A stretch of DNA of 64,000 bases from an uncultured bacterium (GTDB taxonomy: Bacteria > Patescibacteriota > Minisyncoccia > Phycocordibacterales > UBA9973), in contig CALCZP010000002.1 in assembly GCA_937903035.1 (NCBI GenBank), positions 20,739 through 84,738 on the forward strand, in the 5' to 3' direction. This document shows, one piece after another, positions 91-31,885 of this stretch. The notes beneath the pieces were generated by a model. The model was not told the DNA's origin, made no database searches, and worked only from the letters and a program-made list of their open reading frames with translations. Every line of letters begins with the position of its first letter. The stretch's first letter is position 1. The translations under genes were made by a program, and so were the position numbers.

Positions 91-188
91 ACAAGAATCA
101 TACGATACGAAAGTATATCATTTTACATTAAGACCATTTGGTCTTAATTCGAGAATGTTCGGAATTCAATGAGAGAAGTAGAATACTA

Positions 189-216
189 TTGACAATTTTT
201 GATTATTATTTATAAT
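189..216 (+). promoter_or_regulatory. Sigma70-like promoter (TTGACA, 16 nt, TATAAT) upstream of ORF 240-743, preceded by the palindrome AAGACCATTTGGTCTT (130-145) and the motif GAATGTTCGGAATTC (153-167)
   Basis: Read directly: TTGACA at 189-194 and TATAAT at 211-216, about 25 nt before the ATG at 240. Near-consensus hexamers are common in AT-rich DNA, so confidence is moderate. Confidence 0.4.
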
Positions 217-239
217 AATCAAAACCTTAAAAACTATAT

Positions 240-743: not shown

Positions 744-778
744 ATCAAAATTCGTTTTAAAAACGCTATTTTGTACAA

Positions 779-822
779 AATAGGCTATTCCTTATTCAAG
801 GAATAGCCTATTACTCTTTTTG
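779..822 (+). terminator. Rho-independent terminator hairpin (AATAGGCTATTCC...GGAATAGCCTATT plus T-run) after ORF 240-743
   Basis: Perfect 13-bp inverted repeat followed by CTCTTTTT. Confidence 0.5.
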
Positions 823-830
823 TTGAAAAA

Positions 831-858
831 TAAAAAAGCTGGATTTCTCCAGCTTTTG
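831..858 (-). terminator. Terminator hairpin (AGCTGGA-TTTC-TCCAGCT) with a T-run on the minus strand, downstream of minus-strand gene 864-1385
   Basis: 7-bp stem. The minus strand reads GCTGGAGAAATCCAGCTTTTTTA. Confidence 0.5.
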
Positions 859-863
859 TTTAA

Positions 864-1385
864 TCATTTTTTGTTTTCAGCTTCATTAATCTTTTCTCTT
901 AACTCAGCCGCTTTTGGATAATCTTCATTTCGTACAGCTTCTTCCAGTTGCTTCCTGAGTATTTCAAGGTTTAATTCAGGGTCGATTTTTTTCCGCTTCT
1001 TCTCATCAATCGGAGCTAAAATCAGACCTTCTTTGAAGACAATGTATTCGTGCTCGCATTCTGCCACCATATTGATATAGGTGGTGACATTTTCAATAAC
1101 GAAATCATTATCTTCGTTTTCTCCTCTTGAGAAATCAAGCTCAAAATCATGCTCGGTCATTTCTGATCCGATACGCTTAACGTACACACATTCAGGAAAG
1201 ACTTCCATGAATTCTTCAACAGTATCTCCTTCGGGGAGGTGAATTATTCCGGTGTCATGATGAAGATAGAGACAATCCTTAATGACGAGGATGTGTTGGT
1301 TTTCGATAAACCCTTCATCACCAATATCCATTTGCGAAAGACGGCACTGGCGATGGCGAACATTTACTTTTCCAATAATGGGCAT
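864..1385 (-). CDS. hypothetical protein with a C-terminal UVR (UvrB/UvrC-type) motif
   Basis: The C-terminus LRKQLEEAVRNEDYPKAAELREKINEAE matches the UVR-domain consensus from UvrB/UvrC. The N-terminal domain is not recognised. Confidence 0.55.
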   Translation of the reverse strand: MPIIGKVNVRHRQCRLSQMDIGDEGFIENQHILVIKDCLYLHHDTGIIHLPEGDTVEEFMEVFPECVYVKRIGSEMTEHDFELDFSRGENEDNDFVIENVTTYINMVAECEHEYIVFKEGLILAPIDEKKRKKIDPELNLEILRKQLEEAVRNEDYPKAAELREKINEAENKK

Positions 1386-1496
1386 GGTTATGTGGTTTTA
1401 AGGTTATAGAATTTTGTTTAAATCCACATTACCATCTTACTTGACTTTGTCAAAGAAACGGGTAGAGTACGAGGAAACTCATTTAAAACATAAATT

Positions 1497-2717
1497 ATGT
1501 ACAAACTCGAACATGAATTACTCACGAAGTATGCAAAAGTAATGGTTCATTATGCTATTGGAAATGGTAACGGACTTAACAAGGGCGAAACAGTCTTTCT
1601 TATTGGTCAGGAGTGCACAAAGGATCTCTATCTCGAAATTTGCAAAGAAATTTGGCGAAGTGGAGGAAATGTAATCCATCGATACCTTCCTGATGAAGTA
1701 GGACGTTATGGTATAAACCGATCATTGCTTGAGATAGGTACCGATGAACAACTTACATTCTTTCCAACTCCGTATTGGCAAGGTGTTACTGATGTTATGG
1801 ATCATATTCTATTTATCATTGCTGATCCAGATATGCATGCATTGGATGGAATACTTGCTGAAAAAATTTGCAAAATGGAGGAATCAAAGGCTCCCTTTAT
1901 GGAAATGCGTGAAAAGAAAGAATCCGTAGGCAAACTCTCTTGGACACTCTGTTTGTATGGAACCGAGTCAATGGCCAAAGAAGCAGGTATAAATCTGCAA
2001 GAGTATTGGGAACAGATCATCAATGCTTGTTATCTCCAAGACGAAGATCCGGTTGCAACTTGGCGTAATACTAAGGAAGAGATTGTTAAAATCAAGTCTT
2101 GGCTTTCTGAACTCAAGATTGAAAGGGTGCACGTTGAAGCAGATGGAATTGATCTTTGGATCAAGGTTGGAGCAGATCGTAAATGGCTTGGAGCATCGGG
2201 GCACAATATACCAAGCTTCGAAGTCTTTACATCACCGGACTGGAGAGGAACATCTGGAAAGATTTTTTTCAATCAGCCGTTATACTATCAGTGTAAAAGG
2301 ATTTCTGGCATTCAGCTTGAGTTCAAAAATGGTGTTATTACTCATGCTTCAGCAGCAGAAAATGAAGATACGCTGTTACAGATGATTGCGATTGAAAACG
2401 CCAACAAAATAGGAGAGTTTTCTTTGACTGACAGACGTCATTCCAGGATTACCAAACCGATGGCAACAACTCTGTTTGATGAAAATATGGGTGGAAAATA
2501 TGGCAATACGCATATTGCACTTGGTATGTCCTATAAAGAAGCTTTTGTCGGTGATATTGGGGGCACTACAGATGAAGGATGGGAAGCGAGAGGTTTCAAT
2601 CTTTGTCATAAGGTTCACACCGACATCATCAGTACTGCAAACAGAAAAGTAACAGCTACTTTGGCAAACGGTGAGTCGTTAGTAATTTATGAAAACGGAC
2701 AATTTACAGTTGTCTAA
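1497..2717 (+). CDS. M29-family aminopeptidase (AmpS/PepS-like)
   Basis: 406 aa. The N-terminal pattern LLxKYAKVMVxYAIGxxxGLNKGETVFL and the overall length resemble thermophilic-aminopeptidase (M29) proteins. Family assigned from memory of the sequence pattern. Confidence 0.6.
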   Translation: MYKLEHELLTKYAKVMVHYAIGNGNGLNKGETVFLIGQECTKDLYLEICKEIWRSGGNVIHRYLPDEVGRYGINRSLLEIGTDEQLTFFPTPYWQGVTDVMDHILFIIADPDMHALDGILAEKICKMEESKAPFMEMREKKESVGKLSWTLCLYGTESMAKEAGINLQEYWEQIINACYLQDEDPVATWRNTKEEIVKIKSWLSELKIERVHVEADGIDLWIKVGADRKWLGASGHNIPSFEVFTSPDWRGTSGKIFFNQPLYYQCKRISGIQLEFKNGVITHASAAENEDTLLQMIAIENANKIGEFSLTDRRHSRITKPMATTLFDENMGGKYGNTHIALGMSYKEAFVGDIGGTTDEGWEARGFNLCHKVHTDIISTANRKVTATLANGESLVIYENGQFTVV

Positions 2718-2726
2718 TTTATTCAA

Positions 2727-2747
2727 GGAGCTTCGGCTCCTTTTTCT
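2727..2747 (+). terminator. Terminator hairpin AGGAGC-TTCG-GCTCCT plus TTTTTC after the aminopeptidase gene
   Basis: 6-bp GC-rich stem, UUCG tetraloop and a T-run, 10 nt after the stop at 2717. Confidence 0.55.
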
Positions 2748-2828
2748 ATTTATTCCGAACTCTTGAGGATGTTTGGAATTATTTGACAAAATAAAAAATA
2801 TTGTGTAATTTTGGTAAAAATAATCATT

Positions 2829-3091
2829 ATGAAACAAACTCTTGAAATGAAAACCTTATTTAAGAAAGGTGATAAAGTTAAAATCACCAGACTTGAAAAA
2901 ATGGTTACACTGACGAAGGTGAGGTATTCTCAGCTTCCTCGAAAGAAGTTGGTATTAAGATAACTCAGTCTCCAACTCAAGGTGCGGTAGGTATGGAGGT
3001 AAGGTTTGGGATGAGAGATGGGGTATGGAAATACCTGAATGGAAATACGTATAGCAAGAGAGATTCTGGGTATTCCATTGCAAAAATTTAA
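2829..3091 (+). pseudogene. Small gene interrupted by a frameshift in an A6 run (2896-2901). If the run is restored to A7 it gives an ~86-aa protein beginning MKQTLEMKTLFKKGDKVKITRLEKNGYTDEGEVFSASSKEVGIKITQSPTQGAVGMEV..., which may be a DUF2945 / hypervirulence-associated TUDOR-like small protein
   Basis: Frame A runs ATG 2829 to TAA at 2946. The -1 frame continues from 2903 to TAA at 3089-3091 with a coherent sequence. The junction is exactly at GAAAAAATGG. A promoter-like TTGACA sits at 2785 and a hairpin terminator at 3102-3131. Confidence 0.35.
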
Positions 3092-3101
3092 TAAAAACTA
3101 G

Positions 3102-3131
3102 AGATGCTTTAGTAATAACGCATCTTTTTTA
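3102..3131 (+). terminator. Terminator hairpin AGATGC...GCATCT plus TTTTTT
   Basis: 6-bp stem with a 12-nt loop, followed by T6. Confidence 0.4.
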
Positions 3132-3163
3132 TTTTGTCTAAATTAGATTCAAACATCGTTCAA

Positions 3164-3195
3164 GCATTCCGAACATTAGAGGATGTTCGGAATGC
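3164..3195. promoter_or_regulatory. Perfect 13-bp inverted repeat GCATTCCGAACAT-N6-ATGTTCGGAATGC, directly upstream of a promoter-like TTGACT(3203)...TAGACT(3224) for ORF 3247
   Basis: Read directly. The same half-site ATGTTCGGAAT recurs at 153-167, 2755-2782 (imperfect) and 3545-3569. Confidence 0.45.
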
Positions 3196-3246
3196 TCTGA
3201 TATTGACTCCTATTTAAAACCGACTAGACTGGAGAAAACATTTGCC

Positions 3247-3624
3247 ATGAGTAAGCTATACAAATGCAAAAAGAAAGTATTGGATTTTATACAAGCTGCT
3301 GGTGATACTGGGGCTACAGAAAGTCAGCTAGTATGTGTTATTAATGAATTTAATAGGGAAGAATGTATGTTTGAATACGATATCAATCCTCTAACTCCAG
3401 CTTCAATTATTGAGCAGCTTGTATTCAAGTTCGAAGACCTTCTTTTTGAAAAGAGATTTATTCCAAAGAAAGAACTTTTCTTCTTTTGGATTTACAAATC
3501 TTCGCCACCTCCAGGAAAGGTGGTTTTTCTTTTGTCTCTACTAGCTCGGAATGTTGAAGGATGTTCGAATGAGTTTAGGGTAATAAAAAACCCATCACGA
3601 ATGATGGGTTGTTGTAAGAATTGA
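3247..3624 (+). CDS. hypothetical protein (125 aa). The N-terminal region could be a winged-helix DNA-binding fold, so it may be the regulator for the adjacent palindromes (speculative)
   Basis: ORF with a promoter-like sequence and an operator-like inverted repeat upstream. Its 3' end runs through a hairpin at 3589-3615, so the true stop may be earlier. Confidence 0.4.
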   Translation: MSKLYKCKKKVLDFIQAAGDTGATESQLVCVINEFNREECMFEYDINPLTPASIIEQLVFKFEDLLFEKRFIPKKELFFFWIYKSSPPPGKVVFLLSLLARNVEGCSNEFRVIKNPSRMMGCCKN

Positions 3625-3631
3625 ATGAATC

Positions 3632-4033
3632 TTACTCAACAGTGATTACTCCTTTACGAGTTTTTGTTGAATAATAAGCCTTAATTGTAACAATTTCTTT
3701 TCTATAAAATCCAAGAAGGTAGTCTTCCTCAGCGAAACATTTGAAGTCCTCAAAACTGAGTTTTTTAGCATACACTCCTGGTTCTATTTTCTCCGGCTTT
3801 TTAACAAAAAATGATTCCGAAACACATTCTTTGTTAGTGGAAAAAGTTAGGTTCCAGGATTGACCACCGCCATCTTCCGCCTCAATAGAGTTGATGATTG
3901 CAGCAATATACTTTTCATTTTCATTTTTTTCAAAACAAAAAGGAACTAACCTTTTTTCGGCTAAAAGGCGTAAACCGTCAAACAATTCCTCTCTTGAGGG
4001 ACCGTTTGTAATCTGAATTGTTTTTTGTAACAT
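3632..4033 (-). CDS. hypothetical protein (133 aa)
   Basis: Clean ORF convergent with 3247-3624. No recognisable motif. Confidence 0.45.
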   Translation of the reverse strand: MLQKTIQITNGPSREELFDGLRLLAEKRLVPFCFEKNENEKYIAAIINSIEAEDGGGQSWNLTFSTNKECVSESFFVKKPEKIEPGVYAKKLSFEDFKCFAEEDYLLGFYRKEIVTIKAYYSTKTRKGVITVE

Positions 4034-4203
4034 CGTACGATGAATTTAAAAGAACTCTTTATGCGTTTTACAGAGGATAAAGAATACTCTGGAGCTATGA
4101 AGCAATCTTTCCGTACAGAAAGAACTATCTGCATCATAGCACAAAATAATTGACAAGTCAAGTATGATATGCTATCATACAGTTAAATCAAACTTAAAAA
4201 ATT

Positions 4204-4581
4204 ATGAACTATAAGCTTTTCTACACATGCCTTATAACATTCTTTGGCATGATGTTTTGGTTACTGTTTCAGCAGGGCTCTATGGACTTTATTGCTGTCA
4301 GAATAATCATCGCCTTTATCTCAGCAATCCTTCTTTTCTTTTCTGTAACATGGAATGAAAAAGGTGGTTGGAAAAAGGCAGTGGTAGTACTTCTGGTGAT
4401 AATAGGTTTCGGTTCAATCGCAAACTTTGCTTTTGGCTGGGGTATCGCACATTATCCAGGAATTACACTACTGACAATGCCAGGGATACTTGTTCTTGGA
4501 CTTTTATACATAAAGTTTGTGGAACCAAAAATTCTGAACAAAAAGCCAAAACAGAAAATGCGTCCTGAGATTTATAATTAA
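4204..4581 (+). CDS. small integral membrane protein (3-4 TM helices)
   Basis: Hydrophobic throughout. The upstream TTGACA (4150-4155) and extended -10 TGCTATCAT overlap the palindrome GTATGATA-TGC-TATCATAC (4162-4180). Confidence 0.5.
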   Translation: MNYKLFYTCLITFFGMMFWLLFQQGSMDFIAVRIIIAFISAILLFFSVTWNEKGGWKKAVVVLLVIIGFGSIANFAFGWGIAHYPGITLLTMPGILVLGLLYIKFVEPKILNKKPKQKMRPEIYN

Positions 4582-4769
4582 ACTAATTTGTCCTTTTACC
4601 GAAATGCCTCACTTAATAGTGGGGCTTTTTTCTTTCCTCCAGACCTTCACAACATACACAACGTTCACGTGCTCGCTTGGAGGAACGCATTTCGAACTTT
4701 TGACTGGGCTGAATTATACAGCGATACTAAGTTCCACTTAGAAAATACTAACAGGTTGCTTGCACTAGC

Positions 4770-6617
4770 TTAAAGAGTTACCTGTCTGACAATCTCTCTA
4801 ATTTCAATACTTTCTGGGTTTGCATCGTCTGCAAGATATGTCGTGAGTTGGTTATTGCAGAAATCGATTGTTTCAGTAAGACCCTTGGTGATCCCTAGAT
4901 AATGTTCTAGATCACCATTTTTAAGAATATACATTTTGTTTGCGTACTCTCCGTCAATTCTAGCCTCCCAATCTGTATTTCTCGCTTTGAATGCAGTTAC
5001 TTCAGCAGGTGCTTTTACGCTCTGTCCTTTGTCTGCAGGATAGAAAAGATCGATAGCAAAATCCAGATCATTGATGCCATAGACTGATAAACCAAAGCTC
5101 GTAAAAAGAGCACTCCATTCTTGATGATTACCTTTGCCGTTAGTTTCAAGCACAGCAATCTCTTGATCAAGTTCTGGGTACTTTTCTTGAATGATAGATT
5201 TGAAAAAGTATCGATCTGTATCGCCCTCAACTAAGAGAACTTTTTTGGCAAAGAATGCGTAAGTTGATCTGGTATTGTCGAGTATCTTGATGAGTATTCT
5301 TTGCTCAGTTGTCAGTGTAGGTGCTTTGATGGCGGTGTATCCATCAGATGTTAGGGAGAAACGCTTTACTTGATTGATAGTCGATGAATTGATCAGTGCT
5401 TCTGAATGAGTTACCAAAATATATTGACAACTTTGTTCTTTGTTCAGTTCTCGAATAACCTGCAGATATTCATTTTGAAACTGGTAATGAAGATGTATCT
5501 CTGGCTCATCAATAATAACTACGCCACCTTTTAGATCACCACGCCCATAAGACTCGAAGACGAGGTGAATAATTGCTTTTTGTCCCGCACTCAAACTGTT
5601 TATGTCATTGAGCTTTTTGTTTCGGCGCAAATCAAGAAACTCAAATGCATATTGCCAAGTTCTGAGGTCTATCAACCTGATCTTGCATTCAAGATTGATG
5701 AGTTTCAGTTTCTTATTTATCGAAATAATAAAGGGTAGTTCATTAGCACTCTTTTCGCATTCTGCATCGTCCATTTTTCCTGAAATGAGACTAAAATGTT
5801 TTTCCGCTACTCGAAGCCTGACAAGACCAAAGATGCTTGGCTCTCCTTGGTCATTTGCATTTAAGCTTTTTGAGAAATCACGAGTTTTGATTTGTTGCAT
5901 TTGCTGTGATGGAAGCTGATCTCGTAGTGAGATAGATGTATCAAAAGCATGATAGTTTCGATAACTTGAAATTAAAGTGAAAGACTCATACAACGGGGCA
6001 ATCGGTGCTGTTGGGTGTTCTATGTTGTATATCTCGATAAGCTCTTTATAGAAATTGTAGTCAGAAAGATATTCAAACCCAAAATCGTGAGCACCTTGTT
6101 GAAATGCGACTGAAAAAGACTGGTTAGTTTTGTTCAAGGTAATATCAAGTGTGTAGTTTTCTTGATGTGCCGTCAGTCCTGTAAGACCTCGTACTGTATA
6201 TGAAAGAAGTGGGTTAAGAGAAGCCTGATTGTCTCTGATGTGTTGTAGGTTCTGCAGATCAATAGCATCGAGCTTTATTTCAAGTCTAATTTTCTGATCT
6301 TTGTCCTCAGTGTTCCAGTTTGGTTCCAAGCGAAAACCGCTGTATGTCTGGGCATTCACAGGTGTAAGGATTTGCTTTCTCTCGTCCGCAGTTACAGTAC
6401 TTTTCCGTGAATACAACTCTTGATTTACATTGAACTGCTTATATAGCACTCTCTTGAAAAGAAAGTTTACAACCTCCAATGCAGTAGATTTTCCTGCACC
6501 ATTCTCTCCAATAATGATATTTAGACCATCCTCAAAGACGATCTGCTCAGCGTTAGCTACATCGTCATGGTGCTTAAAACTTAGGATGTTTGATACTCGT
6601 AATGACTTGATCTTCAT
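4770..6617 (-). CDS. OLD-family (overcoming lysogenization defect) ATP-dependent endonuclease, class-1-like: N-terminal ABC/AAA ATPase plus C-terminal TOPRIM
   Basis: Walker A GENGAGKST near the N-terminus. Walker B/D-loop LVIIDEPEIHLH. C-terminal TOPRIM signature VLLVEGDTDRYFF, with DxD (GINDLDF) about 45 residues later. No adjacent UvrD-like helicase, so it is not a Gabija pair. Confidence 0.75.
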   Translation of the reverse strand: MKIKSLRVSNILSFKHHDDVANAEQIVFEDGLNIIIGENGAGKSTALEVVNFLFKRVLYKQFNVNQELYSRKSTVTADERKQILTPVNAQTYSGFRLEPNWNTEDKDQKIRLEIKLDAIDLQNLQHIRDNQASLNPLLSYTVRGLTGLTAHQENYTLDITLNKTNQSFSVAFQQGAHDFGFEYLSDYNFYKELIEIYNIEHPTAPIAPLYESFTLISSYRNYHAFDTSISLRDQLPSQQMQQIKTRDFSKSLNANDQGEPSIFGLVRLRVAEKHFSLISGKMDDAECEKSANELPFIISINKKLKLINLECKIRLIDLRTWQYAFEFLDLRRNKKLNDINSLSAGQKAIIHLVFESYGRGDLKGGVVIIDEPEIHLHYQFQNEYLQVIRELNKEQSCQYILVTHSEALINSSTINQVKRFSLTSDGYTAIKAPTLTTEQRILIKILDNTRSTYAFFAKKVLLVEGDTDRYFFKSIIQEKYPELDQEIAVLETNGKGNHQEWSALFTSFGLSVYGINDLDFAIDLFYPADKGQSVKAPAEVTAFKARNTDWEARIDGEYANKMYILKNGDLEHYLGITKGLTETIDFCNNQLTTYLADDANPESIEIREIVRQVTL

Positions 6618-6661
6618 GGTGTAATACTAGCATTTTTTGCCCTGTTTAAGTATTTCAAAAA

Positions 6662-7600
6662 ATGTTAAAATACACTTTACTTATGAGCAATGTAACAAAG
6701 CCCAAAAAAAGGACTTCAAAGAGCCTTAAAAACAAGAAGAAGTTTACTTTTATAGACTTATTTGCAGGGATCGGTGGCTTTCATTACGCTTTCCATAACG
6801 TAGGTGCAGAATGCGTCTTTTCTTCAGAATGGGACGAACACGCAAGAAAAACCTATCAGACCAACTTTGAAAAAATAAGTCCTGATCTATTTAAGTCTGG
6901 TAATTTTGTTGGAGATATTACAAAAGTAGATAAGAAAGCTATTCCTGATTTTGATATTTTGACGGGAGGATTTCCGTGCCAGCCATTTAGTCAGGCAGGG
7001 TTCAAAAAAGGTTTTAGTGATACGAGAGGCACACTTTTTTATGATATTGCGGACATAATCAAAGTTAAAAAACCTAAAGCTTTTTTCCTAGAAAATGTTA
7101 GAGGGCTTCTCGCTCACGATAACGGTAAAACTTTTGAAACGATCAAGAGTGTTTTGACTGAAGAGTTAGGATACTCACTATTTTTTAATATCGTTAAAGC
7201 TTCTGATCATGGCTTGCCTCAAAATCGCCCTCGACTATTTATGATCGGTTTTAGAAATAAGAAAATACCTTTTTCTTTCCCTGAAAAAAGACCCCTGGAG
7301 TTCACCATGTCAGATGTATTTGGTGAGCCTGTAAATCGTGATATTGGCTTTACTTTGCGTGTTGGTGGCAAAGGCTCTGTAATTACTGATAGACGAAATT
7401 GGGATAGTTATATGGTAAATGGAAAGCCTAAAAGATTATCCTCAAAGGAGGGTAAGAAAATGCAGGGGTTTCCAGATGACTTTGTTTTCCCAGTCTCTGA
7501 AAGTCAGGCAATGAAGCAATTAGGAAATAGCGTAGCCATATACGCCATACAAGATTACGCACAAAAGATAATTGAAGCACTTGAAAATCATTATGAATAA
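6662..7600 (+). CDS. DNA (cytosine-5)-methyltransferase, the modification subunit of a type II R-M system
   Basis: m5C-MTase motifs: I FIDLFAGIGGF, IV GGFPCQPFS, VI FLENVRGL, VIII QNRPRLFMIGF, X GNSVAI. The true start may be the internal Met at 6683. Confidence 0.9.
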   Translation: MLKYTLLMSNVTKPKKRTSKSLKNKKKFTFIDLFAGIGGFHYAFHNVGAECVFSSEWDEHARKTYQTNFEKISPDLFKSGNFVGDITKVDKKAIPDFDILTGGFPCQPFSQAGFKKGFSDTRGTLFYDIADIIKVKKPKAFFLENVRGLLAHDNGKTFETIKSVLTEELGYSLFFNIVKASDHGLPQNRPRLFMIGFRNKKIPFSFPEKRPLEFTMSDVFGEPVNRDIGFTLRVGGKGSVITDRRNWDSYMVNGKPKRLSSKEGKKMQGFPDDFVFPVSESQAMKQLGNSVAIYAIQDYAQKIIEALENHYE

Positions 7601-8675
7601 TCAAAAACAAACAACAGGAAATACAGGAGAATGGAGTGAGTTATACGCTCTCGCTTTTCTCTTGGCTAATGGTGGTGCATACGGTGCTGACAAAGATCAA
7701 AACAGAAAAGAGGATTTGTTCTACAAGGTTCTGAAGATAATCTTTGCTGAAAAAGTGGGTAAAGAAAAGATGACTTACGAAATCAATGATGGAGTTATCG
7801 ATGTCTTTGCAGGTTTGAATAAAATCGCCTCAATAAAAACACAAAAGATACAAAGCATTCTTAAAAAGATGTTCGAGACTTTATCTGCAAAAAATGTAGG
7901 GCGAGCCTTTCCACTAGAAGCAGGTTCAGAGATGATGCAACTCTTACAGAAACAAGTCATTAAGGCTTCAAGCTCAGATAAGAAAGACCTTGATCTAGTG
8001 GTTCTTGATCTGAAAACAAACCAGCCAAGTCCAGAGATTGGCTTCAGTATAAAATCCCAACTCGGAAGCCCCTCAACTCTAGTAAATGCTTCAAGTGCAA
8101 CAAACTTTACTTACGAGATACTTGATAAGGATATGAAAGTCCCTACGCAATTACCAAAATTGCACGAGAAAAATGTTAAAGATAACATCAATCTTTTGAT
8201 GGCTTCTGGATATAACATTGTTTTTCGTAAAGTAGACAGTGAGAAGTTTGAACACAACCTTTCTTTGATCGATAGCAATCTGGCGACATATATCGCAAAA
8301 ATACTTTTGTCATATTACGCACGAGAAGCAAGTAATTTATCGGGTCTAGTTTCTCATAACTTTCCTGCATCTGATCAACAGAGCAAACAGCCAACTCATA
8401 AGATAAAAGAGTTCCTGAGTATTATGGCTTTGGGAATGATGCCTAATACTGATTGGAATGGAATACTAACAAGTCTTGGAGGTTTTCTGTTGGTTAAAAA
8501 AGATGGTGATGTATTGTGCTATTACCTCTACAACCTCGAAGATTTCCAAGAATATCTGCTAAATAATACAAAGCTCGATACACCAAGCACCACTCGATAC
8601 GGAATTGGAAAAATCATAGAGGAAGACAATCGCTTTTATATAAAGCTCAATCTACAGGTTCGATTTACTAAATAA
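7594..8675 (+). CDS. Type II restriction endonuclease, HpaII-family-like
   Basis: The ATG at 7594 overlaps the MTase stop (ATGAATAA), which is typical R-M coupling. The N-terminus GNTGEWSELYALAFLLANGGAYGADKD matches my recollection of the conserved HpaII-family N-terminal block (GEWSELY...). ORF-track start 7572 trimmed to 7594. Confidence 0.6.
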
Positions 8676-8794
8676 ATTACACAAAAGATCGCTCTACACA
8701 TCTGTCTTTTTGAGGTGTTTTTCGATATAATGCAATTACAGCTGAATAAAGCCGACCTAACCCCTACAGCCTTAAAACTTTAGGATATGGTCGC

Positions 8795-8951
8795 AAACCG
8801 CAAGCAACGTAAAAACCCGATCATTAGGGCGTTGCTTGCGTTACATGGGGAAACCTGTGTATGAGTCTTCGGACTCACCTAGTGGTCGGATTTTTGCGTC
8901 TTACCCTCCTAGTTTTAAAAATAAAGCAAAACAAATCGCAAGCAACGATTA
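8795..8951 (+). promoter_or_regulatory. Structured leader in front of ORF 8951. CGCAAGCAACG occurs at 8799-8809 and again at 8937-8947 (the second copy abuts the ATG). A single complementary CGTTGCTTGCG lies at 8830-8840. A GAGTC-UUCG-GACTC hairpin lies at 8864-8878
   Basis: Read directly. Two identical segments compete for one complement, and the second copy covers the ribosome-binding region. Confidence 0.35.
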
Positions 8952-9379
8952 TGAATACAAACAATATCTCTTCCTGGAGTACAGGAAGAAAGTTAGTCGT
9001 TTTTTTATTAGTTCCCATCTTCATTGCAGTAGTCGTAGGTATGGCAAGCAGTCCAACTCCTGCTCCTGTCCAAAAGACGGCAGAAGAGATCGCATACCAG
9101 AAGAAGCATGACTTTGCTTCATTGGCGAAGATGAATGTCGAGATGATGCTCAAAGCTCCGTCTACAGCAAAGTTCAATACTTCTCCGACCATCAAGGAAG
9201 AGAATGGTATCTACTCGATCAACTCATGGGTTGATAGCGAGAACAGCTATGGAGCGATGATCAGAAGCCAGTGGTCAGCCAAGGCTCACTACATCGGAGG
9301 AGACTCTGAAGATGAGATCGGAACAGGCGCAAACTGGATCATTGACGAGTTCATTTTTGACGGGAAAAAGGTCAAATAG
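8951..9379 (+). CDS. membrane-anchored / secreted hypothetical protein (142 aa from the internal Met)
   Basis: N-terminal TM segment LVVFLLVPIFIAVVVGM. ORF-track start 8861 trimmed to the Met that follows the structured leader. Confidence 0.45.
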   Translation: MNTNNISSWSTGRKLVVFLLVPIFIAVVVGMASSPTPAPVQKTAEEIAYQKKHDFASLAKMNVEMMLKAPSTAKFNTSPTIKEENGIYSINSWVDSENSYGAMIRSQWSAKAHYIGGDSEDEIGTGANWIIDEFIFDGKKVK

Positions 9380-9390
9380 CAAATGATGCA

Positions 9391-9594
9391 TTAACAGTGG
9401 AAAAAACAGTGGTGAGGGGGTCAAAAACACGCAAAAAAACACGCAAAACGGTATCTGATCTTTTTGGACAATAACAGTGTGAAAAACAGTGTGGGGAGGA
9501 TCAAAAACAGTGAAAAAAACAGTGAAAAGTACCTCGAAAAGCATCACAAGAAAAAGTACATTAACAGCGATAAAAACAGCGAGAGAGGGTCAAA
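9391..9594. repeat. Iteron-like composite direct-repeat array of three ~37-bp units spaced ~80-88 bp apart. Each unit is a doublet of AACAGTG/AACAGCG separated by A5-6, followed by a G-rich TGAGGGGGTCAAAAAC-type tail. Interleaved doublets ACGCAAAA x2 and AGTGAAAA x2
   Basis: Units at 9391-9428, 9471-9508 and 9559-9594, read directly. They lie immediately upstream of the winged-helix gene 9630-10262. Confidence 0.6.
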
Positions 9595-9629
9595 TTGCGG
9601 TGTACTTTGTCGACAAAAAATACTAAAGT

Positions 9630-10262
9630 ATGTCTATGACAAAGTTGGCATCTAATGCAAACCAAAAAGTAAAGCTAATCCTAGAAAAAATCGTTGAAGA
9701 ATACGATTTAGGAAATGGTAGTGGCGACATCACACTAGGAAGTCATCATTTCCTAAAAGATACAGGTATAGATACTAATCAATTCCTAAGGATACTGAGA
9801 AATCTTGAACAGAACCATATTCTTGAAAGCTTTAAAGTGCACGCAAACGCTAGAACTGATGATGGCGATCTGGTCTGTTTCTTGAAGCCATTAAACCACT
9901 TTAAATCAAGAGCTGAAGATTATATTGAAAGACTTGAAGTTCCAGTAGAGTCTGCTCCTGGTTTCTTCTTGTATCTTGATAAAAGCAATTTTTGGCATAC
10001 TGATAAAAAGAAATACTCTTACCCGATGAATAACGCACCAGGACGTTTAGCGATCTTAAAATACCTAGCAGAAAACAAGGGAGTTCAACCTACTAAAGAA
10101 ATAGCTTCTTTTTTGGGTAGAACAACTAAAAGGATTATGAATGATGTGGGAAAAATAAGAGCAGAAATCAAAGAACATCTAAAGCTCCCAGATGTTATAG
10201 AAAACAGCAAGCCAGATGGTTACTACATCAACCCCAAGTATACAGTTATAGTTACTGACTAA
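9630..10262 (+). CDS. hypothetical DNA-binding protein (putative winged-helix). Candidate replication initiator or regulator acting on the upstream repeats
   Basis: 210-aa ORF. The C-terminal segment RLAILKYLAENKGVQPTKEIASFLGRTTKRIMNDVGKI is HTH/winged-helix-like. Its position next to the iterons is only suggestive. Confidence 0.45.
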   Translation: MSMTKLASNANQKVKLILEKIVEEYDLGNGSGDITLGSHHFLKDTGIDTNQFLRILRNLEQNHILESFKVHANARTDDGDLVCFLKPLNHFKSRAEDYIERLEVPVESAPGFFLYLDKSNFWHTDKKKYSYPMNNAPGRLAILKYLAENKGVQPTKEIASFLGRTTKRIMNDVGKIRAEIKEHLKLPDVIENSKPDGYYINPKYTVIVTD

Positions 10263-10382
10263 GTACTCTCGCTCTCCTGTTAATATCTAGGATCAATGTC
10301 TTATCTTAAAAAGGTTTTTTAAGATGTGAAGAGTACTAGAAGCGTATATACAGAGTACATATCTGACACATAAAATCATTAT

Positions 10383-10565
10383 GTGATCAGCGATGCAACA
10401 ATTAAGAAGTTCCAACAAGTAGTCGAGAGTGAGTACCATGTCATTCTTGATGAAAAGGAAGCGAGAGAAGTTCTCACTAACTGGGTTGGTTATTTTGACT
10501 TGCTTGCAAAGATCGATCACAGAATACAATCAGAAAGTCAGAGGTCGTTAGTGAGTCCTCTTTAA
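10383..10565 (+). CDS. small hypothetical protein (60 aa)
   Basis: ORF in a 530-nt gap. Sequence looks protein-like but has no RBS or motif support. Confidence 0.25.
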   Translation: MISDATIKKFQQVVESEYHVILDEKEAREVLTNWVGYFDLLAKIDHRIQSESQRSLVSPL

Positions 10566-10574
10566 AAAACCGAC

Positions 10575-10660
10575 TACTAACTTGTATTTGCATGTAGATA
10601 ATAGCGCCTGACACACTGAGTGAGACTTCTCAGCAGGCGACCTCATCTGCATACAAGTCA
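10575..10660. other. Nested imperfect inverted repeats (CTTGTATTTGCATGTAGAT ... ATCTGCATACAAG enclosing CGCCTG...CAGGCG). Candidate oriT, att or sRNA-like structured site
   Basis: Read directly. Lies upstream of the RHH-like small gene and the recombinase. Confidence 0.25.
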
Positions 10661-10792
10661 AGCAACTGTATCGAGATGTTTGCTATGAGGGGGTTGAAAC
10701 ATTTTGATAGATTTTTTGAAAAATTACTAATTTAACTATCCCAATCTGTAAAAAACCAATACAGATGAGGGAGGAAAAAGTCTAAACAAAAT

Positions 10793-11023
10793 ATGTCAAC
10801 AAAGAGACAAAAGCTATATAGCAAAGAAGATATTAAGCTTGCACAAGAAGAAAGTAAAAGAGTTGGAAAATACTTTACTCGTAAAACAGCCAAAAGGAAA
10901 ACAATACAGGTTAGGATCGGTGAAAAATGGCATCAAAAGATCAAAGAAGTCGCTGGTGAAGAAAAGATAATGATTTCATTTTTTCTTGATCGAGTTTGTG
11001 AGCACTTCTTTAAGCATTACTAA
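10793..11023 (+). CDS. small basic protein (76 aa), possibly a ribbon-helix-helix DNA-binding protein (MobC-, Arc- or RDF-like)
   Basis: Good SD (AGGGAGG) 8-14 nt upstream. Lys/Arg-rich. The KTIQVRIGEKWHQKIKEVA segment is compatible with an RHH beta-strand plus helix. It sits directly 5' of the recombinase. Confidence 0.45.
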   Translation: MSTKRQKLYSKEDIKLAQEESKRVGKYFTRKTAKRKTIQVRIGEKWHQKIKEVAGEEKIMISFFLDRVCEHFFKHY

Positions 11024-11038
11024 TTATTTACTAATCAC

Positions 11039-12610
11039 ATGAATAAACCAACAAAAACAAAAGCCGTTATATATGCCAGAGTTTCTTCTAAAGAGCAGGA
11101 AGAAACTGGCTACTCATTAAACTCACAAGAGGAGCTTCTAAATAATTACTCAACAAGTCGAAACGACTTCAATGTAGTAAAAGTATTTAGGATTTCTGAG
11201 TCTGCGAGTGGGAAAATCCAGCGCACAACCTTTACTGAAATGATTAAGTTTATGGACAAGAATAAAATAAATATCCTTGTCTGTGAGAAAGTCGATCGAC
11301 TCACGAGAAACTTCAAAGATGCATTGATTATCGATGAATGGCTAGATCAGGATGAAAACCGACAGGTGCACTTGGTCAAGGACTCTCTAGTGATGCATAA
11401 GCATTCAAAATCGCAAGAAAAGCTTAACTGGGGTATTAGAATACTCTTCGCAAAAAATTACACAGACAATCTTTCTGAAGAAGTTAAAAAGGGTCAGAAG
11501 CAAAAAATAAAAGAGGGTTGGCTACCAACCACTCCTCCACTTGGTTATAAAACTGTAGGAGAAAAAGGACATAAAATCCATGTGATCGATGAGACTGTTG
11601 CACCCTATATAAAAGAAATGTTTGCCTTGTATGCCACAGGTAATTATTCAACAGTTGCGTTGGGAGAAAAAATGTACAAACAAGGCTTCCGAAGTCGATC
11701 AGGTGTTCAGGTAGTAAAAAGCCAAATACATAAAATACTCTCTGAGCCTTTTTATTACGGAAAACTTGTATGGAATGGAAATCTTTTTGAGGGCAAACAC
11801 GACCCACTTATCTCAAAAGATTTGTTTGATCAGGTTCAGGCAAAAATGTCTCGTGGTGCAATACCGTATCACAATAAAGGGCTTACTGAGTTAAGAGGTA
11901 AAATCTTCTGCGGTTCTTGTAATAAAACCGTTACTTGGGAATTACAAAAAGGCACTATGTATGGTGGTTGTAAGCAGTGTAAGGCACAGCTTGGCAAAGA
12001 TAAGAAGTATATCCACCAGGAAGACCTAGAAAGCGATCTACTGGCTCATATTGCCTCTGTAGCTCCTCTTAGTGAGAAAGTTATAGATGTGCTTAATCAG
12101 GCTTTAAAAGAGAGCCACAGTGAGGAAATAGGGCTACATGAGACTCAAACCAGGAACATCAACAATCAACTAGAAAGAATAAGGCAGAGAATGAAAAACA
12201 TGTACCTGGACAAGATTGATGAGAGAATAAGCGGAGACTTCTACGATGAGCAGGTCGCACAGTTTGCAGAAGAAAAAGAAGCATTACTCCACTCTCTGAA
12301 AAAACTCGAAGCAGATAATACTGAATACTACCGAGTTGGATTTATGATCCATGAGATTGCACTGAGAGCGAGAGAGATTTATCTCAATGAAAACGCATCG
12401 ATTGAAGAGCGCAGAATGCTTCTTGCTTATGCATTCTCGAACATCACTGTTTTAGCAGGAAATATAAAGGCAGAATACACAAAACCTTTTGCTTTTCTTG
12501 CAGAATGGATGCCAAGAGTAAATGAAGTTCTCGAACTGGAAAAAACCCTTGGTACAAAAGGAAAAGAGAGCACTTTCGTGCCCTCTCATCCTATCGTGCT
12601 CCCCCGGTAG
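11039..12610 (+). CDS. large serine recombinase (resolvase/invertase N-terminal catalytic domain, recombinase domain, zinc ribbon and coiled coil)
   Basis: N-terminal VIYARVSSKEQ with catalytic Ser, and DRLTRN. Zinc ribbon CGSCNK...CKQCK. 523 aa. The stop codon overlaps the tRNA-Asn 3' end. Confidence 0.9.
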   Translation: MNKPTKTKAVIYARVSSKEQEETGYSLNSQEELLNNYSTSRNDFNVVKVFRISESASGKIQRTTFTEMIKFMDKNKINILVCEKVDRLTRNFKDALIIDEWLDQDENRQVHLVKDSLVMHKHSKSQEKLNWGIRILFAKNYTDNLSEEVKKGQKQKIKEGWLPTTPPLGYKTVGEKGHKIHVIDETVAPYIKEMFALYATGNYSTVALGEKMYKQGFRSRSGVQVVKSQIHKILSEPFYYGKLVWNGNLFEGKHDPLISKDLFDQVQAKMSRGAIPYHNKGLTELRGKIFCGSCNKTVTWELQKGTMYGGCKQCKAQLGKDKKYIHQEDLESDLLAHIASVAPLSEKVIDVLNQALKESHSEEIGLHETQTRNINNQLERIRQRMKNMYLDKIDERISGDFYDEQVAQFAEEKEALLHSLKKLEADNTEYYRVGFMIHEIALRAREIYLNENASIEERRMLLAYAFSNITVLAGNIKAEYTKPFAFLAEWMPRVNEVLELEKTLGTKGKESTFVPSHPIVLPR

Positions 12611-12670
12611 GATTCGAACCTACGACCAATCGCTTAACAGGCGACTGCTCTACCGCTGAGCTACAGGGGA
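12599..12670 (-). tRNA. tRNA-Asn (anticodon GUU)
   Basis: Minus-strand sequence TCCCCTGTAGCTCAGCGGTAGAGCAGTCGCCTGTTAAGCGATTGGTCGTAGGTTCGAATCCTACCGGGGAG folds as a canonical cloverleaf (7-bp acceptor, GCTC/GAGC D-stem, anticodon loop CTGTTAA, T-loop TTCGAAT). It begins UCCCCUG like enterobacterial tRNA-Asn. No CCA is encoded. Confidence 0.85.
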
Positions 12671-28717: not shown

Positions 28718-29506
28718 TTATTGGGAAAGATCTACTTCGGTCCATACATCAATCAACATGTCAGTATCACTCATGATACGTATTTGTTCACCAGGGTATG
28801 CCCGGGCTGATCCTTCAAGAGGAATCGTAATTCCTTTACCATTTTTGTTGAGAAACTTCATTCTCCACTCGTGACCTCTACTGTTGGTAAAGGTCAGTAC
28901 GACTGAATCTCCACTCGTATGTGGCTTGAAGAATATAGCTTTTCCTTCAGGAGAATTAATAGCATACACTACTCCTTTGGAAATCATTGGTGTACCTTCA
29001 CTAAGTGTCGGAAGCGTGCTTCGTACAGTACTAGCTGATGCGGCATTATCTGCTGATCCTAATGAGAGCCGGAGCTTCATCACGGGCCATACAAACCATC
29101 CGATCAACGCCACAATTCCTAAACATATGGCAAGCTTGCCATAGTAGGTAGCACGCTTACTTTTCTTACCAAAGCTTGGTAGTGATGGCAGTTTCCAATT
29201 TTTCCCCCATAGTTTCCATACTAGGAAAAGCACAACAATACAACGAACAGTAAGTATACATACCTTCCAAGACCATATAGATATAAGCCATTTCAAGAAT
29301 AGATAGATTATATATAATCCAAAAAAACCAAAAATGACTAGTGCCATTACTCTAGGTAACTGCTTGGTAGGACTGTTTGTACCACTTATTTGACCTCTAC
29401 GAGGTGTGCCACTTTTTAGCTCTTTTGTTGCATACCAGATGGTGATGATAGCAAATAATAATACTATTGCTAGCAAAATTATTTGCCATGATAGATTAGT
29501 TTCCAT
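28718..29506 (-). CDS. membrane protein with a C-terminal beta-rich domain; possible NfeD-like partner of the upstream SPFH protein
   Basis: Several N-terminal TM helices. SD AAAGGAGTTGG lies before the ATG at 29506. ORF-track start 29536 trimmed. The NfeD assignment is inferred only from its pairing with the SPFH gene. Confidence 0.4.
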   Translation of the reverse strand: METNLSWQIILLAIVLLFAIITIWYATKELKSGTPRRGQISGTNSPTKQLPRVMALVIFGFFGLYIIYLFLKWLISIWSWKVCILTVRCIVVLFLVWKLWGKNWKLPSLPSFGKKSKRATYYGKLAICLGIVALIGWFVWPVMKLRLSLGSADNAASASTVRSTLPTLSEGTPMISKGVVYAINSPEGKAIFFKPHTSGDSVVLTFTNSRGHEWRMKFLNKNGKGITIPLEGSARAYPGEQIRIMSDTDMLIDVWTEVDLSQ

Positions 29507-30611
29507 TGCCAACTCCTTTTGTTGCAATATTCGCAACTAATTGTTTAACAATAGGATTACCTTCATCAGTACCTGTTGTAACCAATGTTGTAACTTTGTT
29601 TTGTTGCAATGCTACAGCTACTTTTGTTTCGTCCACCAGAGCCTTATCTGCTTTTTGGAATTCAATTACTTTGGCAAGTTTAAGTCCAAGGACTTCTGCT
29701 TCTTTTGTTCCGACAGTTTCCGTTTTTTCCGCAGCAATGGTAATCTCAGCTTTACCTTTGATTGTTATTGCTTCTGCGTCAGCTTCAGCATTGATTTTAG
29801 TCTGCTTAGCTATTTCCGTGCGTACATCAGTAGTGATTTTTTGGACACTTTTCTCCTGGCGAGCTTTAATAATACTCTCCGAACCTTTTGAGAGGATTAC
29901 ATCCTCAGGCAGCAAAGTATCAATGATAAACAAATCTTTTGGAAATGTTGTTTTTTGATTTATGTCAATAACGATTAATTCGCAATCGTTATTTACACCA
30001 CCTTTTGTGGCACCTTGCAGTTCTTCAAGTTCTTTCTCGCGAAGTTTTTTCCCAATTTCTGTCTTGAGTAAATCTTCTACATAAGAGAGAAAGTTGCCGG
30101 AAGGGTATGCAGACATAATACCTTTTGCATCAAGAATGCGAAGCACAAATTTAAAGACGATTTGTACTTCAGCACCATCTGAGCTGACGATTTTGATATC
30201 AAAAGGATGAACCTCTCGATCCAAGAGAAACCATTGATCATTGCGTGATCGTCTGACGAGACACATTGACTGGGTTTCTACCATTTTTTTACCATCATTT
30301 TTACCATTATCAGTGGTACTTTTTTCCACTTCCTTTTTATAGGTTAATAGTGGTATGAGATTTTTTTTAGCCGCATCCTGTTCAGTCATTAATTGCTTCC
30401 ATACAAAAGGGAACGTAAATATACGTTCTATGTACGGTAATAAAATAATGTTGCCAAACAAAAAGGGGACAGGGCTGTTATTGTCCAGATAGATTGAGTC
30501 GGCTACCACGTTACCCTGAGAAACCAAATAGTGAAAACCTCTTCGAGGTGAAAAGAATAGGGTCCAACGACTAGGTGCTGAACCTTGCGGGAGAAGGAAT
30601 TCTGTTTCCAT
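29496..30611 (-). CDS. SPFH/band-7 (flotillin/prohibitin-like) domain protein
   Basis: SPFH-like core followed by a Glu/Ala/Lys-rich coiled coil (KINAEADAEAITIKGKAEITIAAEK) typical of flotillin-like proteins. The N-terminal boundary is uncertain. Confidence 0.55.
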   Translation of the reverse strand: METEFLLPQGSAPSRWTLFFSPRRGFHYLVSQGNVVADSIYLDNNSPVPFLFGNIILLPYIERIFTFPFVWKQLMTEQDAAKKNLIPLLTYKKEVEKSTTDNGKNDGKKMVETQSMCLVRRSRNDQWFLLDREVHPFDIKIVSSDGAEVQIVFKFVLRILDAKGIMSAYPSGNFLSYVEDLLKTEIGKKLREKELEELQGATKGGVNNDCELIVIDINQKTTFPKDLFIIDTLLPEDVILSKGSESIIKARQEKSVQKITTDVRTEIAKQTKINAEADAEAITIKGKAEITIAAEKTETVGTKEAEVLGLKLAKVIEFQKADKALVDETKVAVALQQNKVTTLVTTGTDEGNPIVKQLVANIATKGVGNGN

Positions 30612-30683
30612 ATATTATTTTTTTATTGTGAATGAATGATTTTGTTTGAATAAACTATATCACAAATATATAAAAATGTCAAT

Positions 30684-30715
30684 AAAAAATCCCACCGATT
30701 TGTGTCGGTGGGATT
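30684..30715 (-). terminator. Terminator hairpin AATCCCACCGA...TCGGTGGGATT with a T-run on the minus strand, after gene 30732-31217
   Basis: 11-bp perfect stem. Confidence 0.55.
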
Positions 30716-30731
30716 GTCTTTTTGCATGCTT

Positions 30732-31217
30732 TTACAAGCTACCTTTGTAGGATGATTGACCTGCTGATTCAGGTGTTTCTGCAACATCGACCCAATATTC
30801 AGTAAGCCAGTTGTCCCTGTACTTTAGAAGATCTTGTTCTTGTTCAGGAACAAAATCAGGACTTGCAAATCTGCAGGTTATGAGTACTTTGATGGCAAAG
30901 TACTTCGTTCCATCAACGGCTACAAGCGGCCTTACTGCCTTTATAGTTCGTGCTTGGCCTTCGGTCAGACGTATCGGAATACCAATTACTTGATAGGCTG
31001 TTCCGTTGTCGCTCATTTGTTTAAAATAAGCAGTGATCTGACCACCTGTTGGTTCTGCAAACAGGTATACTGTTGCGTTGATCCTTGCACGGTGTTGTAT
31101 TTGCCTATAGCCGGAAAGTCCATCAAAGATGTTGAACTTAAGCTCAGGCGGAGTCGTTTGTGCGTTTGCTGATGTAATAGATGCAATAAAGATGATAAAG
31201 AACAATACCTTTTTCAT
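30732..31217 (-). CDS. secreted hypothetical protein (signal peptide MKKVLFFIIFIASITSANA)
   Basis: Sec signal; no known domain. Confidence 0.5.
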   Translation of the reverse strand: MKKVLFFIIFIASITSANAQTTPPELKFNIFDGLSGYRQIQHRARINATVYLFAEPTGGQITAYFKQMSDNGTAYQVIGIPIRLTEGQARTIKAVRPLVAVDGTKYFAIKVLITCRFASPDFVPEQEQDLLKYRDNWLTEYWVDVAETPESAGQSSYKGSL

Positions 31218-31367: not shown

Positions 31368-31449
31368 GCTGGAGTGGCGGAATTGGTATACGCGCTAGTC
31401 TTAGGAACTAGTGCCGCAAGGCTTAAGGGTTCAAGTCCCTTCTCCAGCA
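31368..31449 (+). tRNA. tRNA-Leu (anticodon UAG), class II with a long variable arm
   Basis: GCTGGAG/CTCCAGC acceptor stem, anticodon loop CTTAGGA, variable hairpin GCC-GCAA-GGC, T-arm AAGGG-TTCAAGT-CCCTT. Confidence 0.8.
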
Positions 31450-31538: not shown

Positions 31539-31550
31539 CTATAGATATAC

Positions 31551-31592
31551 AAAACAAAAAACACTAAATATATTTAGTGTTTTTTGTTTTGT
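31551..31592. terminator. Perfect 21-bp AT-rich palindrome (CAAAACAAAAAACACTAAATA|TATTTAGTGTTTTTTGTTTTG) between convergent tRNA genes. Bidirectional terminator-like
   Basis: Read directly. Confidence 0.45.
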
Positions 31593-31595
31593 ATT

Positions 31596-31620
31596 GGGGG
31601 CGGGACTCGAACCCGCACGC
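31596..31620 (-). repeat. 25-nt duplicate of the tRNA-Leu(UAA) 3' end (T-arm plus acceptor: GTGCGGGTTCGAGTCCCGCCCCCA). No 5' half is foldable, so this is a partial tRNA and a candidate att-site scar
   Basis: Identical to 31664-31688 (plus-strand coordinates). The 40 nt between the copies do not form D or anticodon arms. Confidence 0.5.
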
Positions 31621-31660
31621 CGTATAAGGGCAAGGGATTTTAGTAATTTCACCACCACAG

Positions 31661-31743
31661 TGCTGGGGGCGGGACTCGAACCCGCACGGCATTGCTGCCT
31701 GAGGATTTTAAGTCCTCTATGTCTACCATTCCATCATCCCAGC
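31661..31743 (-). tRNA. tRNA-Leu (anticodon UAA), class II
   Basis: Minus strand GCTGGGATGATGGAATGGTAGACATAGAGGACTTAAAATCCTCAGGCAGCAATGCCGTGCGGGTTCGAGTCCCGCCCCCAGCA. Anticodon stem GAGGA/TCCTC, loop CTTAAAA, variable hairpin GGCA-GCAA-TGCC. One A-C mismatch at the base of the acceptor stem. Confidence 0.7.
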
Positions 31744-31813: not shown

Positions 31814-31885
31814 AGACCCGAGCGAGAATCGAACTCGCGAATAGTTCTTTTGCAGAGAACCGCCTTACCACTTGGCCATCGGGTC
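31814..31885 (-). tRNA. tRNA-Cys (anticodon GCA)
   Basis: Minus strand GACCCGATGGCCAAGTGGTAAGGCGGTTCTCTGCAAAAGAACTATTCGCGAGTTCGATTCTCGCTCGGGTCT. Perfect acceptor, anticodon and T stems. Confidence 0.85.

Follow-up and report, generated by a model that had tools for sequence, protein, structure and literature searches.

The tRNA locus

Two convergent tRNA operons lie near the middle of the window, i.e., the whole stretch of 64,000 nucleotides that was analysed. The minus-strand operon starts with tRNA-Cys(GCA) at 31814–31885 (minus strand; ARAGORN and Rfam) and continues with a functional tRNA-Leu(UAA) at 31661–31743 (minus strand), referred to below as allele type A. This gene was called by ARAGORN, matched Rfam RF00005 with 53.5 bits and scored 91.3 bits with R1, a clade-specific covariance model built from 51 tRNA-Leu(UAA) genes of relatives with the window's own gene left out (R1 was run with filters off, and its E-values are rough owing to a shortened calibration). 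It is similar over its full length to the syntenic gene of the relative L008. The plus-strand operon carries tRNA-Leu(UAG) at 31368–31449 and, as its second gene, tRNA-Lys(CUU) at 31466 to about 31538. Both operons have promoter-like sites upstream, that of the minus-strand operon being at 31949–31921 (minus strand), upstream of tRNA-Cys(GCA). A perfect palindrome of 24 + 24 nt at 31547–31594, which comprises an A-tract, a hairpin and a T-tract and folds with −44.2 kcal/mol (z = −7.9), is best read as a bidirectional terminator common to both operons. Between this terminator and the functional tRNA-Leu(UAA) lies the subject of this study, a tRNA-Leu(UAA) pseudogene of a different allele type (type B) at 31592–31658 (minus strand).

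The protein-coding neighbours of the locus are RbfA, a short IF-2, DUF4446, a class-V aminotransferase, ClpB and T4SS-pilin-like proteins. The relatives identified through IF-2 are Patescibacteria (Paceibacteria/Minisyncoccia) throughout, the closest being L006, L007 and L008 with 72–74% identity, and no relative above about 70–74% IF-2 identity was found in one genome-contig scan and one metagenome-contig scan. The gene order RbfA, tRNA-Cys, tRNA-Leu(UAA) is kept in most of the ~160 related loci. Beyond the tRNA cluster, many relatives share synteny of the pilin-like p112, p130 and p309, of p187 and p206, and of a solute-binding protein.

Three lineage-specific ORFs (272, 371 and 161 aa) at 28718–31217 (minus strand) separate the tRNA cluster from the conserved pilin-like genes. 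None of them has a Pfam domain; the N-terminus of the 161-aa ORF is signal-peptide-like, and only the 371-aa ORF was matched in relatives, weakly, in L008. Inside the 371-aa ORF, 29901–29915 (plus strand) matches the variable-arm region of tRNA-Leu(UAA) exactly over 15 nt (ATCCTCAGGCAGCAA), in the opposite genomic orientation. This match (about 0.01 expected) was set aside as probably due to chance, having no extension and lying within an ORF.

The 25-nt direct repeat

The plus-strand sequence TGGGGGCGGGACTCGAACCCGCACG occurs twice as an exact 25-nt direct repeat. Copy 1, at 31664–31688 (minus strand in tRNA sense), lies within the functional tRNA-Leu(UAA), where it runs from the last variable-arm bases through the entire T-arm to the fifth base of the 3′ acceptor strand; copy 2, at 31595–31619 (minus strand), forms the T-arm block of the pseudogene. 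No match to the repeat was obtained when the window was dinucleotide-shuffled 100 times, even with three mismatches tolerated. The duplicate reported in the initial annotation is thus real, and the position given there for the copy within the gene was correct; the other copy had been placed at 31596–31620, off by one. The spacing is as short as had been noted, but the figure of 40 nt, used both for the distance downstream of the gene and for the distance between the copies, becomes 41 nt from the gene end to copy 2 and 44 nt from copy to copy.

The identity block ends at ...CCCCCA, 3 nt short of the discriminator, after which the gene reads GCA and the copy reads ATA. What had been described as a duplicate of the tRNA 3′ end is therefore duplicated tRNA-Leu(UAA) sequence that excludes the 3′ end itself, and the copy sits in a longer pseudogene. 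On the side of the variable arm the block is bounded by the beginning of unrelated variable arms, and on the other side by the terminator palindrome, whose edge (31594) abuts the end of copy 2 (31595). The structure of repeat and relic recurs without a single base difference in L002 and L003, two independent metagenome assemblies of other samples, and is thus not an assembly artefact.

Anatomy of the pseudogene

With R1, the region 31592–31658 gave a full-span match of 29.2 bits that covers model positions 1–84 with one internal local gap (E = 8e-8 in a 276-nt search and 2.6e-4 in 0.9 Mb). The pseudogene is 67–70 nt long and begins 0–2 nt past the end of the functional tRNA-Leu(UAA). Its 5′ side consists of an acceptor strand GUGGUGG and UG (U8-G9), followed by 17 nt that replace 35 model positions and that retain the anticodon loop (CU-AAAA, one base short) together with its 3′ stem, ACU-AAAAUCCCU. 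About 18 nt, corresponding to the D-arm and the 5′ anticodon stem, are lost, in addition to 1 nt of the anticodon loop. The 3′ side comprises the variable arm UGCCCUUAUACGGCG, the T-arm, the 3′ acceptor strand CCCCAAU and the discriminator A.

Over the stretch from anticodon loop to T-stem, the relic is identical at 42 of 47 positions to the bona fide tRNA-Leu(UAA) of other Paceibacteria (L028/L060), whereas its match to the adjoining functional gene is confined to the T-arm. The variable arm of the relic is of the long GCC..GGC kind found in other Paceibacteria and represents an allele type other than that of its neighbour. Copy 2 of the repeat is thus the best-preserved stretch of a tRNA-Leu(UAA) pseudogene of a different allele type. 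In the 5′ part, the piece GGTGGTGAAATT equals positions 6–17 of the tRNA-Leu of L075/L085 (shuffle p = 0.023), and five of the seven positions of the 5′ acceptor pair with the relic's own 3′ strand, which is not significant alone. A tRNA-Leu origin of this 5′ part is suggested with moderate confidence (p about 0.02). Since the sequence 5′ of copy 2 is tRNA-Leu-like, the distal unit appears to be a whole damaged gene copy and not the native 3′ end displaced and fused to the arm of an element.

In the spacer between tRNA-Cys and tRNA-Leu, the segment 31767–31788 (minus strand), GATGATGGAAT-GT--ACATCG-GGA, copies positions 6–31 of the functional gene with three small deletions. It includes the 12-nt exact repeat D2, reaches a local alignment score of 13 (shuffle p = 0.005) and is probably a third, heavily decayed tRNA-Leu(UAA) fragment. 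A 9-mer that flanks the gene, AATTTCACC, was considered as a target-site duplication and rejected as chance, with a shuffle p of ~0.1 and a predicted pre-insertion gene that would be without a 5′ acceptor.

Lack of tRNA function

The initial annotation had found that copy 2 cannot be folded into a complete tRNA and had suggested running tRNA predictors on the region. This was borne out, as no bona fide second tRNA was called by ARAGORN at its default (100%) and 90% thresholds or by Rfam RF00005 at E ≤ 10. At 80%, all that ARAGORN added was a spurious ‘tRNA-Phe’ of 95 nt, which overlaps the functional tRNA-Leu(UAA). The idea of a second tRNA with an unusual structure was rejected accordingly, nothing credible having emerged from ARAGORN at 100%, 90%, 80% or 70% or from Rfam at E ≤ 10. 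Thus, the region 31592–31658 combines full-length similarity to the tRNA model with the absence of a functional cloverleaf, the D-arm and the 5′ anticodon stem being missing, as is typical of a tRNA pseudogene. The relic cannot form a tRNA and is non-functional; it is a dead tRNA gene copy, which annotation pipelines should leave uncalled.

Given where the promoter-like site and the terminator lie and how the operon is laid out, the relic falls within the minus-strand transcription unit. Most likely, it is co-transcribed in the 3′ trailer that runs from tRNA-Leu to the bidirectional terminator and would afterwards be discarded.

Structured inserts at tRNA genes of relatives

In the fetched loci of relatives, about 46 of 465 tRNA genes are followed, 72–314 nt downstream and on the same strand, by an exact 15–22-nt copy of the tRNA that runs from T-loop C56 to the 3′ end. 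The tRNAs concerned are Leu-UAA, Leu-UAG, Cys, Lys, Tyr, Gly and Trp, and examples of the inserts are found at L015 8038–8151, L009 8259–8500 (L009 has two inserts in tandem), L025 4875–5007, L055 10007–10155 and L008 8267–8389. Between a tRNA and its 3′ copy, the DNA harbours a terminator hairpin together with a structured core that falls into several classes. In L077, a 314-nt insert at 7759–8072 that is bounded by tRNA-Gly 3′-end repeats contains a small ORF judged, from its translation alone, to be GIY-YIG-like. In some tRNA-Lys inserts, the copied sequence comprises only the last 3 nt and the trailer.

The class-1 core is a three-way junction according to RNAalifold. In the class-1 alignment, 94.3% of the cells are paired, compared to 70.4% after shuffling, and double changes occur in 22 of 25 pairs; the covariation score is 0.626 vs. 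0.205 for shuffled and ≤ 0.105 for slid alignments. In helix P1, a ‘guide’ segment pairs with the copied tRNA sequence after a conserved ..GUGAC. R2, the class-1 insert model built in the present analysis, was searched against two overlapping sets of sources, giving 48 matches at E ≤ 0.1 in the first (85 sources) and 43 at E ≤ 1e-5 in the second (98 sources); among the best 40 matches, 37 sit 8–70 nt downstream of a tRNA on the same strand. The class-1 inserts match no Rfam 15 family, and an exact-pattern scan of IMG/VR came back empty. Such inserts may be mini mobile elements, RNA-guided inserts or trailer-processing RNAs. The relative L008 carries a decayed class-1 element at the exact position of the window relic. 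The window relic itself is not a member of this insert family, from which it differs in the start of the repeat, its end and the spacer.

Serine recombinases and sequence switches at tRNA genes

Genes of large serine recombinases that are convergent with a tRNA gene, with abutting or overlapping 3′ ends, were observed in five relatives (L006 8600–9500, L125 7036–8561, L091 7397–8851, L117 8355–9749 and L068 11925–12902), the tRNAs met by them being Leu-UAA, Lys, Leu-UAG and Gly. No displaced tRNA fragments were found at the far ends of these elements within the fetched loci. L006 also has, at 7960–8480 between tRNA-Cys and tRNA-Leu(UAA), an ORF resembling an HNH-type homing endonuclease, as judged from translation alone.

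The same geometry is seen in the window itself, where positions 1–12670 form a low-GC block (0.36–0.39 vs. at least 0.45 elsewhere) that ends at tRNA-Asn(GUU) (12598–12670, minus strand). A 523-aa large serine recombinase with Resolvase and Recombinase domains (11039–12610, plus strand) has its last codons and stop inside the 3′ end of this tRNA. The cargo comprises an OLD-family ATPase/TOPRIM nuclease at 4770–6617 (minus strand), a C5 DNA methylase at 6662–7600, an HpaII-type restriction enzyme at 7572–8675 and an M29 peptidase. The block looks like a defence island integrated at tRNA-Asn; its far end lies outside the window, and a displaced tRNA-Asn fragment was not found. This geometry of recombinase and tRNA 3′ end, shared between the relatives and the tRNA-Asn of the window, is a recurrent integration mode in the clade.

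Three further contigs are 99–100% identical to the window and then switch to unrelated DNA from inside a tRNA gene (L001 6478–6563, L002 3398–3475 and L167 1748–1829). The switch points fall in tRNA-Leu(UAA), tRNA-Lys or tRNA-Leu(UAG) and yield hybrid tRNAs with mismatched acceptor stems. L001, a contig of 3.9x coverage for which a chimera is possible, changes inside tRNA-Leu(UAA), and its flank carries housekeeping-type genes, including RluA-like and DUF2238 genes, and no integrase; the foreign side of L167 has a class-1 insert and an rve-family transposase. All three are low-coverage contigs (2.6–4.7x) from the same sample series, and Logan unitigs break at the same tRNAs. The switches are possibly real recombinants at tRNA genes or possibly metagenome assembly chimeras. 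Their use as occupied or empty sites was set aside, because at 2.6–4.7x coverage and with unitig breaks at the same tRNAs they are indistinguishable from chimeras.

Origin of the relic

On balance, and with little better than even confidence, we read the relic as a decayed second tRNA-Leu(UAA) gene copy that carries a conversion or recombination tract. A second gene copy, of type B, would once have adjoined the functional type-A gene, having arrived either by duplication, as in L007, or as foreign DNA inserted at a hot spot. It would then have been inactivated through loss of the D-arm, the 5′ anticodon stem and one anticodon-loop base, and the 25-nt identity would represent a tract exchanged between the neighbouring copies via gene conversion or a recombination joint.

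One line of evidence for this proposal is the contrast between the perfect block and the remainder of the two units. A comparison of the homologous 25-nt block in 1275 pairs of tRNA-Leu(UAA) alleles drawn from relatives showed complete identity in 0.16% of the pairs and, on average, agreement at 19.6 of 25 positions, and none of the relatives compared exceeds 23 of 25 to the block of the window. In addition, the T-stem is GCGGG/CCCGC in both window copies vs. GUGGG/CCCAC in the closest relatives. An identity of 25/25 is thus improbable by conservation alone, and the sharing of so rare a perfect block by otherwise differing alleles suggests that sequence was exchanged once they were neighbours.

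The relic is absent from the closest relatives L006, L007 and L008. L007 has two tRNA-Leu(UAA) paralogues of different allele types, showing that second copies do occur in the clade. At L007 7842–8495, the pair tRNA-Cys and tRNA-Leu(UAA) was seen to be duplicated and inverted around tRNA-Lys and tRNA-Leu(UAG). Partial tRNA copies comparable to the relic, in which the 3′ end is not reached, follow tRNAs in L113, L105 and L122/L123. Spacings down to 3 nt between tRNA genes occur in relatives, in keeping with a second gene close to the first; against this reading, 0–2 nt between two independent genes would be at the extreme of the range. An intact type-B copy at this position was found in none of the relatives sampled, all of which are at or below about 74% IF-2 identity, and a degenerate-pattern search of IMG/VR for a viral source of the type-B copy gave no match. 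The sharp edges of the identity block, which also resemble those of a site-specific recombination core, count against a decayed gene copy. A native gene of a closer relative that ends in ...CCCCCAATA and has no distal unit would be a state contrary to this reading.

That resemblance leads to the proposal made in the initial annotation, an integration or excision scar. In its classical form, an element would have used a core of 25 nt or more for recombination with tRNA-Leu(UAA), leaving attL and attR behind, and would since have been deleted down to 44 nt. Several observations are in keeping with such a history: the downstream copy is a tRNA-identical direct repeat in tRNA orientation (25/25 nt), its core being perfect and its flanks diverged, and genes for large serine recombinases border the tRNA-Leu(UAA) 3′ end in L006 and L125, with others at different tRNAs in L091, L117 and L068 and at the tRNA-Asn of the window. 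Moreover, whatever originally followed the distal copy on its 3′ side may have been overwritten by the terminator, and partial tRNA genes derived from integration are well documented (PMC9897764).

Against a scar of this kind stands the end of the repeat, ahead of the discriminator base, where an attL/attR block would be expected to reach or pass the tRNA 3′ end. On its 5′ side, the distal core is preceded by tRNA-Leu-like sequence as far back as the acceptor and D-arm (42/47 to L028; the D-arm 12-mer), where an element arm would be expected, and both units are internally ‘parental’ rather than hybrid. If the distal 3′ end were the native one, the ancestral tRNA would have had a C2xA71 mismatch in its acceptor. 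For serine recombinases a 2-bp crossover suffices, and serine integrases are not known to need or create an identity of 25 nt; the 25-nt repeat is thus left unexplained by them.

Element genes, cargo, an integrase or a GC island were likewise not found beside the relic. None of the neighbouring genes encodes a recombinase domain, and the sole recombinase within the 64-kb window is the one at tRNA-Asn, 19 kb distant. Because the genes past the tRNA cluster are syntenic in many relatives, no island adjoins the relic; an island was rejected on this ground, the three ORFs at 28718–31217 being the only lineage-specific ones and having no mobile-element domains. The comparison with relatives for an inserted element, which had been suggested at the outset, did reveal serine-recombinase elements (L006, L125) and small inserts at the same tRNA 3′ flank, although the window locus has no element and its downstream synteny is kept. 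What stands of the scar proposal is that a relic without function, oriented like the gene, combines a perfectly identical core with diverged surroundings at a site that is a hot spot in relatives; a simple attL/attR pair does not stand, and we regard a classical scar as unlikely, if worth serious consideration. The relic is non-functional under this reading and under that of a decayed gene copy alike.

A further possibility, which we consider improbable, is that the type-B copy came in with an undescribed kind of small DNA, mobile or structured, that has tRNA 3′ regions as its target, swapped its T-arm with the resident gene and decayed. If so, the relic would be linked to the abundant, Rfam-absent three-way-junction elements, and the locus would be a site of tRNA-gene turnover in Paceibacteria.

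A recent local tandem duplication of the 3′ part of the resident gene by replication slippage, with a period of 69 nt, followed by decay, would account for the head-to-tail arrangement and the 69-nt spacing, and 50 nt upstream there is another short partial duplicate, derived from the 5′ part of the gene. However, such a duplication predicts uniform identity, whereas the 25/25 identity in the T-arm drops sharply in the variable arm and the anticodon stem. Random decay would also not be expected to yield a diverged part that fits functional alleles from other lineages, as is the case here (42/47 to L028), and this origin is very improbable.

No more credible is a functional, tRNA-like trailer element, in which the T-arm and the variable hairpin would act as a processing signal, a decoy or a part of the terminator. 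The hairpins of the T-arm and the variable arm are intact, the relic and the terminator have a stable joint fold, and the relic lies within the transcription unit; but the fold energy comes mostly from the terminator palindrome, and the element is conserved in no relative, L006–L008 being without it and R1 giving no comparable match in 0.9 Mb.

The least probable origin, descent from the small structured inserts that duplicate tRNA 3′ ends, has in its favour their abundance (about one tenth of the tRNAs examined in relatives) and the decayed insert at the exact same position in L008, and is opposed by a repeat that begins ahead of the T-stem rather than at T-loop C56 and does not reach the 3′ end, by a spacer without guide segment or core, and by R2, which has no match anywhere in the 64-kb window at E ≤ 10, so that a class-1 insert at the relic locus was rejected.

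Significance and comparison with known systems

Whichever way the type-B copy arrived, the locus illustrates that a short perfect repeat at a tRNA gene can be all that is readily noticed of a longer copy that has diverged, and that the tiny genomes of Patescibacteria, too, retain debris from rearrangements of tRNA loci. The 3′ flank of tRNA-Leu(UAA) is a repeated target of insertion in this clade, by serine-recombinase elements as well as by small structured inserts. The side observations may outweigh the relic itself, i.e., the covarying element in tRNA operon spacers that is absent from Rfam 15, and the serine-recombinase islands, a defence island included, that read into tRNA 3′ ends. Literature searches returned nothing that describes this type of relic or the structured inserts. 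They did return group I introns situated in the anticodon loops of Patescibacteria tRNAs (PMC13011429).

The integration of mobile elements into tRNA genes leaves partial tRNA genes (van der Gulik et al. 2023, PMC9897764). Like these, the relic is a truncated, non-functional copy in direct orientation beside a complete gene, with a block of perfect identity that includes the T-arm, in a clade whose tRNA 3′ ends are used by integrases. Unlike them, it has only 44 nt and no element between the copies, its identity block stops short of the 3′ end and no integrase is nearby; it also reaches 5′ to the acceptor and D-arm and belongs to another allele type. The large serine recombinase islands at the tRNA-Asn of the window and at tRNA-Leu(UAA) in L006 and L125 share with the relic the side of the gene, the kind of gene and the clade, whereas the relic locus has neither a recombinase gene nor cargo.

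With tRNA pseudogenes or decayed paralogues, the relic shares full-span similarity to the isotype model, the loss of essential arms, a sequence that tRNA finders leave uncalled and a lack of conservation in relatives. It departs from the usual tRNA pseudogenes in lying 0–2 nt from its functional partner and in sharing with it a perfect tract of 25 nt, which suggests conversion or recombination. With these peculiarities, the relic is a further instance of a known phenomenon, the tRNA gene relic.
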